Below, piece by piece: positions 6,216 through 61,362 of a DNA stretch of 64,000 nucleotides. The DNA comes from Squalus acanthias (taxonomy: Eukaryota): positions 1,676,001 through 1,740,000 of the forward strand of contig JASTWF010000033.1 of assembly GCA_030390025.1 (NCBI GenBank), given 5' to 3'. The number at the start of each line of letters is the position of its first letter. The stretch's first letter is position 1. A program made the position numbers and the translations under genes. The notes under the pieces are model-generated. The model saw only the letters and a program-made list of their open reading frames with translations, did not search any database and was not told the origin of the DNA.

Positions 6216-7519
6216 ACAATTCAATTCTATAACAATCGATCCCAATAATTGAACCCAATAGGTTAAAGTCTGAAGTCCAATTTTGTCAGCACGCTGCGAC
6301 ATTCGATGTCTGCAGATAACGGGAGATAAATTCTTAAAACTGCTGGATCTCTTGCTCTGCCATCAACCTCTTATCAAACTGGAGCTGGCATTGCCTAATA
6401 TGGTCGTCTCTGGCTACTGCACAGTCCAGAGACACAAGTCTGCATTTTCTTCAACACACATCAACAACATTAGAAGCAGGTAAAAACACTGTGGCCTTCC
6501 TGTGGCAGCACAAACCAGTAGTCTCCAGACTTTCCTTATCCCAACATCATATTTCTGATCGAAACATTCTATGATGAAAATATCCAAGGCCAGTTGGTTG
6601 CAAACACCAGCTGTTGCTCAGTGAAATCTCTCTCTCTCTCGCTAATGATACCAACCACATTCTCCCCGATATCGAATGAACTAAACATGAACACCTTTCA
6701 GAAGCTGAATTAACCGAGGTCCATATGCCAACACCCCTCTCATCTTCCATTCACTTCAATTGAAAGGAAACCGACAGATTGGACCAGTCAGGATTTGAAA
6801 GATATTTACAACAGATTCTAGATGTTCTTAGAGTTGGGATCTTTCTCTATTCTGTCCACTCGAGGAGTTAGATAACAGACTTTCTCCTGTGAATATAGAG
6901 CTGGGGTATTGGGCCGTGATGTGTTCACTTGTTCATCTTGTTGACTCTAAACCTTTGCCAATTATTTGATGTGATCTGTTTACTTGTACATATTTTTTAA
7001 AGACACTTGCTGAGTGGATTCAAATTGAAATTGAAAGCAGGTTTGCAGGCGTGATGCTCTATTCACACATCGAAGGTGAGAGAGATGCTGTGGGACACAC
7101 GCTAAGTCCAGTAGCGGAAAGTGATTAACAGACTGGGTTTTGTGTTTCGTGATCCCGGGCGTATTACCGAGACCTTCCCTGGATACCAAGGCTAGGAGAG
7201 GCACTCTGGAAGGTATGGGGAGCTGGGACTTGTCCATGAGAGTAACCGAAGGTACGAGAACTGAAATAATCTCGAGTTAGAAAGGAGAAAAGGCCCACAA
7301 ATGGAGCAGTCGGTAACAGGACATCAATTAGTTTCCTCTTAACTTGAAGACATCAAATATCGACACACTGTGTTATTTCAAATATCAAAATATTAAACTC
7401 CAGCCCAGTTATAGGGGTTATTAACATCAGCAGGAAGAAACTCCACCTGTCAGAATGAAGACGATTCAGTCTGGGATGTAATTAACAGCAGCAATAACAG
7501 CGGAATCCAACCCCTGCAG

Positions 7520-8387
7520 TCACTTGTGAACTCGTTGAAATCTCAGCAGGCTGGATGACTGAGTGAATCCCTTCCCACACTCGGAGCAGGTGAACGGCCT
7601 CTCCCCAGTGTGAACTCGCTGGTGTCTCAGCAGGGTGGATGACCGAGTAAATCCCTTCCCACACTCAGACCAGGTGAACGGCCTCTCCCCGGTGTGAACT
7701 CGCTGGTGTTTCAGCAGCCTGGATGATGAAGGGAATTTCTTCCCACACTCAGAGCAGGTGAATGGCCTCTCCCCGGTGTGAACTCGCTGGTGTGTCAGCA
7801 GGGTGGATGACTGAATGAATCCCTTCCCACACTCAGAGCAGGTGAATGGTCTCTCCCCAGTGTGAACTCGCTGGTGTGTCAGCAAGTCAGGTGATCGAGT
7901 GAATCCCTTCCCATATATGGAGCAGGTGAACGGCCTCTCCCCGGTATGAATGCGATGATGAATTTCCAGCTCAGACGGGTAATTGAATCCCTTCCCACAG
8001 TCCCCACATTTCCATGGTTTCTCCGTGGTGCGGGTGTCACTGTATCTTTCCAGGTTGGACGATCAGTTGAAGTCTTGTCCACACACAGAACACGTGTACG
8101 GTTTCAACCCGCTGTCAATGGTGTGATGTTTTTTCAGGCTGTGTAACTGGTTAAAGCTCTTTCCACAGTCAGTGCACTGGAACACTCTCACTCGGGTGTG
8201 TGTGTCTCGGTGCTTTTCCAGTCACACTGATGTTTGAAATCTTTTCCCACAGACAGAACAGACAAACGTTTCTCCTTCCACATTCAAAGGCCGATGATAT
8301 TCAGGTCCTGAGTAACGAGTGATTGTCAGATTTTGACATGATGTTTGGTTTGAGTTTCCCGTCTGCAAATCCTCCCTTTCTAATACC
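7520..8387 (-). pseudogene. C2H2 zinc-finger gene A (terminal exon); probable pseudogene
   Basis: Acceptor ttttacAG at 8388-8389; frame 8026-7520 holds 6 fingers but begins ACG where paralog E has ATG; three fingers lack a zinc ligand (CSIYG, WSECG, LRFQRVH). Confidence 0.85.
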
Positions 8388-8509
8388 CTGTAAAAGGAGT
8401 TTACAAAATTCATCACTGTAAGTACAGGACAGAAATTCAGAACAGACAATTTTAGTTTCTATCGAACATTCTTTCCTCTCTTCTTCCTCCAAAGCTGTAA
8501 ATCCCCATC

Positions 8510-58080: not shown

Positions 58081-60500
58081 GATACAGAGTAAAGCTCCCT
58101 CTGCATTGTCCCACCAAACACTCCTGGGGCAGGTACAGCACGGGTTAGATACAGAGTAAAGCTCGCTCTATACTGTCGCATCAAACACTCCCAGGGCAGG
58201 TACAGCACGGGTTAGATACAGAGTAAAGCTCCTTCTACACTGTCCCATCAAACACTCCCAGGGTAGGTACAGTACGGGGTTAGATATAGAGAAAAGCTCC
58301 CTCTACACTGTCCCATCAAACACTCCCAGGGCAGGTGCAGCACAGCTTAGATACAGAGTAAAGCTCCCTCTGCATTGTCCCTCCGAAAACTCCCAGGGTA
58401 GGTACAGCACGGGTTAGATACAGAGTAAAGCTCGCTGTATACTGTCCCATCAAACACTCCCAGGGCAGGTACAGCACGGGTTAGATACAGAGTATAGCTC
58501 CCTCTGCACTGTCCCATCAAACACTCCCAGGGCAGGTACAGCACAGGTTAGATACAGAGTAAAGCTCCCTCGACACTGTCCCATCAAACACTCCCAGGGC
58601 AGGTACAGCACGGGTTAGCTACAGAGTAAAGCTCCCTCGACACAGTCCCATCAAACACTCCCAGGGCAGGTGCAGCACGGGTTAGATACAGAGTAAAGCT
58701 AGCTCGAAACTGTCCCATCAAACACTCGTCGGGAAGGTACAGCACGGGTTAGATACAGAGTAAAGCTCCCTCTACAGTGTCCCATCAAACACTCCCAGGG
58801 CAGGTACAGCACGGGTTAGCTGCAGAGTAAAGCTCCCTCTATACTGTCTCATCAAACACTCCTAGGGCAGGTACAGCACGGGTTAGATACAGAGTAAAGC
58901 ACCCTCTACACTGTCCCATCAAATACTCCCAGGGCAGGTACAGCATGGGTTAGATACAAAGTAAAGCTCCCTGTACAATGTCCCATCAATCAGTCCCAGG
59001 GCAGGTACTGCACAGGTTAGATACAGAGTAAAGCTCCCTCTACACTGTCCCATCAAACACTCCCAGGGTAGGTACAGCACGGGTTAGATACAGAGTAAAG
59101 CTCCCTCTGCACTGTCCCATCAAACAATCCCAGGGGAGGTACAGTACGGGGTTAGATACAGAGTAAAGCTCCCTCTACACTGTCCCATCAAACACTCCCA
59201 GGGCAGGTACAGCACTGGTTAGATACAGAATAAAGCACCCTCAACATTGTCCCATCAAACACTCGCTGGGAATGTACAGCACGGGATAGATACAGAGTAA
59301 AGCTCGCTCGAGATTGTCCCATCAAACACCCCCAGGGCAGGTACAGCAGGGGTTAGTTACAGAGTAAAGCTCCCTCTATACTGTCCCATCACACAGTCCC
59401 AGGGCTGGTACAGCAGGGGTAAGTTACAGAGTAAAGCTCCCTCTACACTATCCCATCAAACACTCCCAGAGCAGATACAGCAGGGGTTAGTTACAGAGTA
59501 AAGCTCCCTCTGCGCTGTCCCATCAAACACTCCAAGGGCAGGTACAGCACAAAGCTCCCTCTACACTGTCCCATCAAACACTTTCAGGGCAGGAACTGCA
59601 CGTTTTAAATACAGAGTAAAGCTCCCTCTGCACTGTCCCATCAAACACTCGCAGGGCAGGTACAGCACTGGTTAGCTACAGAGCAAAACTCCCTCTACAG
59701 TGTCCCATCCAACACCCCCTAGGCAGGTACAGCACGGGATAGATACAGAGCAAAGCTCGCTCGAGATTGTCCCATCAAACAATCCCCGGGGAGGTACAGC
59801 ACGGGATAGATACAGAGTAAAGCTCGCTCTATACTGTCCCATCAAACACTCCCAGGGCAGATACAGCACAGGTTACAGACAGAGTAAAGCTCCCTTTACA
59901 CTATCCCATCAAACACTCCCAGGGCAGGCACAGCACGGGTTAGATACAGAGTAAAGCTCCCTCTGCACTGTCGCATCAAGCGCTCCCAGGGGAGGTACAG
60001 TACGGGGTTAGATACAGAGTAAAACTCGCTCTATTCTGTCCCATCAAACACTCCCAGGGTAGATACAGCACGGGTTAGATAAAGAGTAAAGCTCGCTCCA
60101 CACTGTCCCATCAAACTCTCCCAGGGCAGGTACAGCACGGGTTAGATACAGAGTAAAGCTCCTTCTACACTGTCCCATCAAACACTCCCAGGGTAGGTAT
60201 AGCACGGGTTAGATACAGAGTAAAGCTCCCTCTACACTGTCCCATCAAACACACCCAGGGCAGGTCCAGCACAGGTTAGATACAGAGTAAAGCTCCTTCC
60301 ACACTGTCCCATCAAACACTCCCAGGGCAGGCACAGCACGGGTTAAATACAGAGTAAAGCTCCCTTTACACTATCCCATCAAACACTCCTCAGGCAGGTC
60401 CAGCACGGGTTAGATACAGAGTAAAGCTCCCTCTACACTGTCCCATCAAACACTCCCAGGACATGTACAGCACGTGCAAGATACAGAGTAAAGCTCCCTC
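58081..60500 (+). repeat. 67-bp satellite, about 36 copies
   Basis: Same unit as 47860-48477. Confidence 0.96.
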
Positions 60501-60911
60501 CACCCATGGCGACCTGTCTGCAGTGAAGCTCCTGTTTGAGTTTCTAACTCAGACTGAACTTCTCTCTCCCACAATGCCCATTATATCAGAAATTTAATGG
60601 CAATGTATTTTAACTAATTTATGTTAAAACATGTTTGTCTCTGAACATTATTGCCCCAAAACCTACGCAGATTTTAGCTCTATTTGAGATAGTTGTCAGT
60701 ATTTGGGAAATCCCTTTAAAGATTATTTGGCAAAAGTAACAATAAACTCCACTGGAGGGAAACACAATCAGCAGGATTTCTACCCCCCTTTCAGGGACAA
60801 GAGTGACTCTGACCTTTCACCCTTTGATATCCAGAACATTAAACTCCAGCCCAGTTATAGGGGTTATTAACATCAGCAGAAACAAACCCCAACTGTCAGT
60901 GTGAACATGGT

Positions 60912-61362
60912 TCAGTCCGGGATGTGATTAACAGCAGCAATAACAGCGGAATCCAACCCCAACAGTTGGTTTAACAGCAGGTTGGATGAACGGATGAATC
61001 CCTTCCCACACACAGAACATTTAAATGACTTCTCTCTCGTGTGAACTCGCTGGTGTTTCAGCAGGTGAGAGGACTGGTTAAATCCTTTCCCACACACGGA
61101 GCAGGTAAACGGCCTCTCCCCAGTGTGAACTCGCTGGTGTGTCAGCAGGGGCGAGGACTGGTTAAATCCTTTCCCACACACGGAGCAGGTAAACGGCCTC
61201 TCCCCAGTGTGAACTCACTGGTGTGTTAGCAGGGGCGAGGACTGGTTAAATCCTTTCCCACACCCGGAGCAGGAGAATGGCCTCTCCCCAGTGTGAACGC
61301 GCTGGTGTGTCAGCAGGGGCGAGGACTGGTTAAATCCCTTCCCACACATGGAGCAAGTGAAC
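60912..61362 (-). pseudogene. ZNF G fragment (about 5 fingers, internal TGA, 5' end lost)
   Basis: [15 protein letters not shown] three times, cag-tga-gtt near 61216, last finger incomplete, family 3'UTR at 60835-60960. Confidence 0.85.

Follow-up and report, generated by a model that had tools for sequence, protein, structure and literature searches.

Sharks carry many poly-finger open reading frames (ORFs) yet no modern KRAB genes, which raises the question of how they use DNA-binding proteins that apparently have no attached repressor domain. Supplemental Data 1 of PMC10547256 puts the number of ORFs with at least five fingers in shark genomes at about 700-3,600, and its table of zinc-finger (ZNF) ORFs gives catshark 3586, white shark 1851, thorny skate 1223, whale shark 1165 and one chimaera 475. 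KRAB-domain families are enriched among those missing from cartilaginous fish (PMC8455134), and PRDM9 is given as the only KRAB-type gene of the whale shark (PMC11603059). According to PMC10547256 many ZNF families remain uncharacterised, and its main text makes no mention of sharks under the terms searched; the identity of the genes behind the shark ORFs is undescribed in the literature searched. Here we analyse a stretch of 64,000 nucleotides from the spiny dogfish Squalus acanthias (assembly GCA_030390025.1, contig JASTWF010000033.1, positions 1,676,001 to 1,740,000), called the window below and numbered from its first letter, in which a first-pass annotation had recognised a repeatedly duplicated C2H2 ZNF gene cassette. 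The window probably holds part of a tandem cluster of a shark-wide, ZNF-only family in birth-and-death turnover, in which a single terminal exon encodes the whole protein.

The shared cassette

A six-frame scan located C2H2 arrays at 7.5-8.3, 16.4-16.6, 19.8-21.0, 26.2-27.4, 31.6-32.6, 41.0-41.6 and 61.0-61.4 kb, and decayed fingers near 10.4 and 24.4 kb. With window-derived probes these were mapped to eight finger-bearing modules, A (-), A2 (-), B+C (+), D2 (+), D (+), E (+), F (-) and G (-), in agreement with the earlier count of at least eight modules sharing one ordered cassette, although its parts need some amendment. Five cassettes are near-complete (A, B, D, E and F), three are partial (A2, D2 and G), and one further copy is a remnant of the 3' untranslated region (UTR). 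The finger blocks at 16.4 and 19.8 kb, previously taken as separate modules, are one gene split by a long interspersed nuclear element (LINE), because block C resumes around the LINE the finger that is interrupted in B; block C as a separate module without a 5' part is thereby ruled out.

Every match of the window to the NRF1-like (12), YY1 (7) and GC-box (6) patterns lies within one of the five promoters, against Markov-control means of 0.45, 1.05 and 0.6, which shows clustering rather than independent discovery, since the motif patterns were shaped on these same promoters. The proposed NRF1/YY1/GC-box promoter holds for NRF1-like and YY1 sites in all five copies, but module A has no exact GC box. 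Independently of the motif patterns, the five promoters reach an observed/expected CpG ratio (CpG o/e) of 0.86-1.05, vs 0.38 window-wide, and make up five of the seven island-like stretches, which suggests that these regions are, or recently were, unmethylated promoters. The common splice acceptor was recovered as a 29-mer with five matches at no more than 3 mismatches (A, B, D, E and F) vs none in 100 shuffles, and decayed copies of it lie in A2 and D2.

The intron of every near-complete copy contains a minisatellite, but not one and the same: a 63-mer occupies A, D and E, and an unrelated 27-mer B and F, so that a minisatellite common to all modules is ruled out. The 63-mer is the amplified intron start, and the donor hexamer is repeated along with its units (7, 12 and 16 times). 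In A2 and D2 there is one diverged, unamplified 63-mer-like unit each (scores 47 and 43 vs shuffle maxima of 25 and 23). As a side observation, the 63-mer arrays (9021-9388, 25078-25860 and 29588-31304) present 7-16 tandem donor-like sites, most units having a splice-donor hexamer, and these sites could give first exons of variable length.

The gene end HQRVHK*, named among the cassette parts, stands in C, D, E and F; A reads FQRVHK*, and G has neither. Likewise, the 3'UTR is conserved in its first 75 nt (81-97% identity across six modules), but further out it falls into two unrelated types, A/E and C/D/F/G.

Mosaic copies and turnover

The copies are mosaics, in which parts of one module differ in their nearest neighbour. 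Module D resembles A/E at the intron end (90-92%, vs 60-63% for B/F), B/F in the leader, the segment between acceptor and first finger (92-94%), B in its first fingers (94%), and C/F/G in the distal UTR (94-98%, vs 63% for A/E). Modules A and E form an inverted duplicate pair with 93% identity in the dead fingers and 98% downstream. A 106-108-bp satellite lies equidistantly downstream of both (4415-5279 and 34869-36830), in 7 and 17 copies, respectively.

Seven of the eight modules are disabled: the start codon of A reads ACG, B is interrupted by the LINE, D has three nonsense codons and F one, G contains a stop and has no 5' part, and A2 and D2 are decayed. Only E retains a clean coding sequence (31870-32628, 252 aa), as had been claimed, and clustered duplicates as recent as A and E (93-98% identical) beside so many disabled modules bear out the earlier proposal of birth-and-death turnover. 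Apart from the LINE, each half of the split gene B is free of stops in its fingers. This minus-strand element, whose 954-codon frame encodes an endonuclease/reverse transcriptase, sits inside one finger helix of B. Its frame is free of stops and its 3' tail is made of short repeats (16856-19720), which marks the insertion as young; no target-site duplication is evident in B.

Finger evolution

In 43 of the 49 finger units (those with DNA identity of at least 75% to the reference finger), the proportion of nonsynonymous differences (pN) is 0.38 at helix positions -1, 2, 3 and 6 and 0.06 in the framework, and that of synonymous differences (pS) is 0.25. The resulting pN/pS is 1.5 (bootstrap 1.28-1.79) at contact sites vs 0.24 (0.18-0.29) in the framework, a pattern rather than a formal test, since the pairs are non-independent and the filter favours conserved units. 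The same contrast is found within the single genes C, D and E. This check at the helix positions, suggested by the first-pass annotation, points to a framework under purifying selection and to diversifying contact residues, a pattern familiar from DNA-binding poly-ZNF families. A framework ratio of nonsynonymous to synonymous rates (dN/dS) of 0.17 was set aside, being conditioned on intact fingers. For the clean ORF of E, the Pfam matches are all of zinc-finger type among the 25 of 34 families listed.

Relatives in other sharks

A profile of four window leaders was searched against 1.84 billion proteins and gave 35 matches, 29 of them real and 6 chance matches that are long and finger-less. 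All 24 real relatives with a species name come from sharks of five orders (Pristiophorus, Heterodontus, Cetorhinus, Carcharodon, Stegostoma and Scyliorhinus), and the other five are unnamed. The supposed cartilaginous-fish expansion therefore stands as to its shark origin and family-wide cassette, but leader relatives were seen in sharks only, rays being matched by fingers only. A single-sequence search of the F leader against longer proteins found no match, though the profile search later found these relatives. A metagenome pattern scan returned three loci, all rejected as chance matches in non-ZNF DNA; one of them (L002:5000-5900) lies in a long bacterial ORF that presumably resembles a Cas9-type protein, judged by eye, and is unrelated to the finding.

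Shark RefSeq/UniRef entries called 'zinc finger protein 239-like', '850-like' and 'gastrula zinc finger protein XlCGF-like' belong to the same family, as they agree in leader, first finger and starts; in many cases the entries of a species share one contig, and the names are automatic similarity labels. Isoform-numbered family models exist in sawshark, catshark, zebra shark and white shark and, given how such models are made, suggest that family loci are transcribed in other sharks. Among 14 long shark models, the beginning coincides exactly with one of the two in-exon starts described below in eight, and lies elsewhere in the same exon in three more. In 11 leader-selected shark examples, the first finger has Tyr at -1 in nine, Pro at +1 in ten and both cysteines intact in eight.

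The sequence before the leader varies among the relatives, which have no N-terminal domain in common: it is translated promoter region in P0001, P0004 and P0021, and translated intron end in P0006, P0007, P0015, P0028 and P0032. Mutual matches among 33 N-terminal segments from 63 shark proteins were confined to the leader or broken fingers. In a finger-based search, none of the 37 chondrichthyan rows (of 49 returned) showed KRAB, SCAN or BTB, and in another (120 returned) KRAB or SCAN appeared in 0 of 14 shark rows vs 85 of 93 tetrapod rows; both counts were made by hand.

Two side observations concern the leader in these models. Six of them (P0012, P0016, P0020, P0027, P0082 and P0083) contain two tandem leader copies, which suggests that in one subtype a 5' exon derived from the leader has been duplicated. 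In catshark, isoforms of one locus (P0023 and P0024; also P0061) join the leader to differing downstream segments and skip the fingers; one such segment matches the distal 3' region of D (27570-27770; also C, F and G), so the conserved UTR may contain a further exon.

A probable finger-only protein and its alternatives

As we read the cassette, a housekeeping-type CpG promoter would drive a transcript whose non-coding first exon is spliced to one terminal exon, and translation would start inside this exon, which would hold the whole protein. In the B/D/F type the start would be the strong-context ATG at the leader end (MEAES/MEGKS), and in the A/E type a finger-linker ATG (MEKP) behind ancestral fingers long dead, the leader being carried as 5'UTR. 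The claim of an ATG almost directly before the fingers is correct for B, D and F, where the start has a strong context and no other ATG lies between it and the acceptor; it fails for A, which has ACG, and for E, where three dead finger positions and three other ATGs precede the linker ATG, itself in strong Kozak context, that opens the ORF. The product would be a finger-only DNA-binding protein, its first finger stereotyped and the array variable, with a conserved framework and diversifying base-contact residues, and new specificities could come from finger duplication, contact-residue change and recombination between cassettes. The copies themselves would come from segmental duplications, inversions and recombination among the cassette parts that they share, and most would die by nonsense change, start loss or LINE insertion.

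Several points weigh against this reading. Exons, start sites and expression at this locus are predictions from the sequence; the start of E follows its three upstream ATGs, and the frame of one of them overlaps it; the starts of the database proteins reflect annotation, as these are automated models and in many cases odd or fused; and the selection ratios, from non-independent pairs and with an identity filter, may be inherited from ancestors. If its codons are counted from the second base past the acceptor, the leader itself shares the frame of the first finger in each of the five young copies. Its sole net indel among B, D, E and F is 15 nt long, missing from B, D and F, and the 2+1 deletion in A restores the frame. 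The leader dN/dS is lowest in the finger frame (0.64 vs 0.85 and 0.93), a weak and mixed signal from 16 variable columns and non-independent pairs.

On account of the frame shared by leader and fingers, a coding exon hidden further upstream survives as a minority reading, in which an unrecognised N-terminal effector, on a short upstream exon or begun at a junction-spanning ATG, would be joined in frame to the acidic leader; we consider this quite unlikely. KRAB-ZNF and FiNZ genes do have such a two-coding-exon layout (PMC10547256), and in the models P0002 (sawshark) and P0013 (basking shark) an initial Met immediately precedes the leader, but the five first-exon regions offer little to join: out of 410 ATG-donor pairs just 3 extend the reading frame without a stop, none of these is common to the modules (the one of B is missing from its sister F), and no donor in these regions is preceded by AT. 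Against the frame-keeping indels and the low dN/dS stand a stop in the B leader, variable columns that fall 5/7/4 over the codon positions with no third-position bias, and leader copies lying in another frame before intact fingers in other sharks (P0012, P0016, P0044 and P0083). The stop after the first dead finger of A/E recurs in the sawshark and horn-shark models P0001 and P0004, thus in two other shark orders, and is therefore old. No N-terminal segment common to the shark proteins emerged, and Pfam and the ESM Atlas gave no usable match for the leader, which is weak evidence. A Pfam scan of 134 of the 192 upstream sense ORFs (minimum length 30 aa), covering exons near the cassettes rather than far outside, found no KRAB, SCAN or BTB, and the shark homologues showed none either, in line with the effector-less cassette first described; the other 58 ORFs belong to LINE remnants, satellite arrays, decayed finger blocks, an intronic insert or distal spacer. 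Weak Pfam matches in the upstream ORFs were rejected as mostly translated minisatellite, and only TOBE_2, in a minisatellite ORF, passed the cut-off. For FiNZ, no shared in-frame upstream exon or N-terminal segment was found, which speaks against a domain of this kind, although no search aimed at a FiNZ profile was made. Taken together, the Pfam, ATG-donor, codon-position, homologue and N-terminus tests make the leader look like a relic linker, now in the 5'UTR and evolving like non-coding DNA.

It is also improbable, in our judgement, that the locus is mostly neutral debris, with promoter-bearing cassettes amplified by satellite and finger-repeat recombination, transcripts that are at most non-coding or blocked by upstream ORFs, and few copies or none that yield useful protein. 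The high proportion of disabled modules, the upstream ATGs of E and a window dense in satellites and LINE remnants would all be expected of debris, as would the many shark family models that are finger-less leader fragments and the catshark isoforms P0023 and P0024 that join the leader to unrelated downstream exons. Debris, however, would hardly account for the contrast between framework and contact residues, which recurs within C, D and E, for CpG islands kept at all five promoters, for two halves of B that are stop-free except for a young LINE, or for a cassette still recognisable across five shark orders. A finger-only family with its protein in one terminal exon thus remains the reading that we prefer.

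Features of the individual modules

On the minus strand, module A has its CpG-island promoter and putative non-coding first exon at 9390-9870 (CpG o/e 0.98, with motifs and a donor-like site at 9388), a 63-bp minisatellite of about 6 units at the intron start (9021-9388) and a predicted terminal exon at 7371-8387, composed of leader, dead fingers with two stops and proximal 3'UTR; here the finger array is decaying, and a stop lies at 7520-7522. Module A2 (9874-11640, minus strand) is an old decayed copy with a LINE fragment within, its single 63-mer-like unit and a frameshifted leader. Its decayed paralogue D2 (23947-24540, plus strand) lies directly before the D promoter, and A2 likewise directly precedes a promoter.

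The 5' part of module B (14135-16626, plus strand) runs from promoter to first fingers, with the CpG-island promoter at 14135-14500, the 27-bp minisatellite at 14651-15220, the predicted exon start at 16287 and the ATG at 16381. The 5'-truncated LINE (16627-19750, minus strand) follows, and block C, the 3' part of the gene (19751-22272, plus strand), continues open through 14 finger positions to HQRVHK* (20968) and the 3'UTR. Module D (24593-28310, plus strand) comprises a CpG-island promoter (24593-25080), 12 units of the 63-mer, a predicted exon start at 26070, an ATG at 26164, 14 finger positions and a 3'UTR.

Module E (plus strand) begins with promoter, 27 units of the 63-mer and intron end at 29280-31506 (promoter 29280-29590, donor-like site 29588), followed by the leader and three dead finger positions with stops and a frameshift (31507-31869; upstream ATGs at 31614, 31628 and 31802). 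Its clean ORF starts with MEKPWKC and encodes eight intact fingers and one broken one, and its 3' region (32629-33900) is 97% identical to that of A, in keeping with the inverted duplication. Module F (40095-43900, minus strand) extends from a CpG-island promoter (43560-43900) through 43 units of the 27-mer, a predicted exon start at 41721 and an ATG at 41627 to seven finger positions and the 3'UTR, and an orphan 3'UTR remnant of the A/E type lies at 43984-44225 on the plus strand.

Module G (57478-61363, minus strand) is a 5'-truncated cassette copy with a finger block at 61363-60967 that contains one stop. Its 3'UTR is broken by a 67-bp satellite array at 58079-60500, with about 125 nt of UTR on both array sides (57478-60966), and the same satellite occurs at 36828-37641 and 47851-48477. 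Elsewhere in the window, an element of about 440 bp with AT-rich, TATA-like motifs has five whole or partial copies near cassettes (11892-12367, 28790-29230, 45200-46314), often adjoining a 30-bp minisatellite and in variable orientation to the genes. Same-strand LINE remnants are piled up at 49000-57500 with a strong G skew of 0.28-0.45. Rfam gave no match in 9000-64000.

Function and comparison with known systems

By analogy with other clustered families, the proteins might act on repeats or transposons, by site occupancy or by finger-mediated recruitment of cofactors, which we judge possible, at slightly less than an even chance. A more doubtful proposal is that sharks possess repeat- or transposon-binding proteins by the hundreds to thousands, sequence-specific and without an effector, whose stereotyped first finger or array recruits silencing cofactors; with both cysteines intact in only 8 of 11 first fingers, the idea of a cofactor finger is weakly supported. 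If that proposal were true, vertebrates would have a third solution beside KRAB and FiNZ, and if the family indeed has no effector domain, it would test whether the expansion of ZNFs linked to transposable elements (TEs) needs a KRAB- or FiNZ-like module. Irrespective of function, leader, promoter and UTR provide a handle for genome-wide annotation of the family, and the cassette layout explains many mis-started or fused shark ZNF models in databases. Both the high ZNF counts of sharks and ZNF-only expansions in other groups are already published; a traceable shark-wide cassette family appears to be undescribed, as no published description was found in the literature searched, most subscription papers lying outside its scope.

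In the shark family as in the KRAB-ZNF clusters of sarcopterygians, the genes lie in tandem, C2H2 arrays joined by conserved TGERP/TGEKP linkers sit in one terminal exon, copies turn over by birth and death, and contact residues diversify; unlike those clusters, the shark family shows no KRAB (no PF01352 in the scanned ORFs or the chondrichthyan and shark rows), and its start apparently lies in the finger exon. The FiNZ-ZNFs (FZNFs) of cyprinids, for which TE repression has been shown (Wells et al. 2023, PMC10547256), are likewise lineage-specific, clustered, fast-evolving tandem ZNFs in fish without modern KRAB genes, but they carry a conserved 28-aa acidic domain on an upstream exon of its own, whereas no conserved upstream coding segment was found in the shark family. 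Large finger-only sets of gene models are known from vertebrates (Liu et al. 2014, PMC3971581), with 1026 ZNF-only vs 3 KRAB models in zebra finch among the automated counts of Table 1, which include no shark species, so that finger-only expansion is not new in kind. For these sets, the part of that source at hand describes no shared cassette, whereas the shark family is defined by a specific leader, promoter and UTR across five orders.

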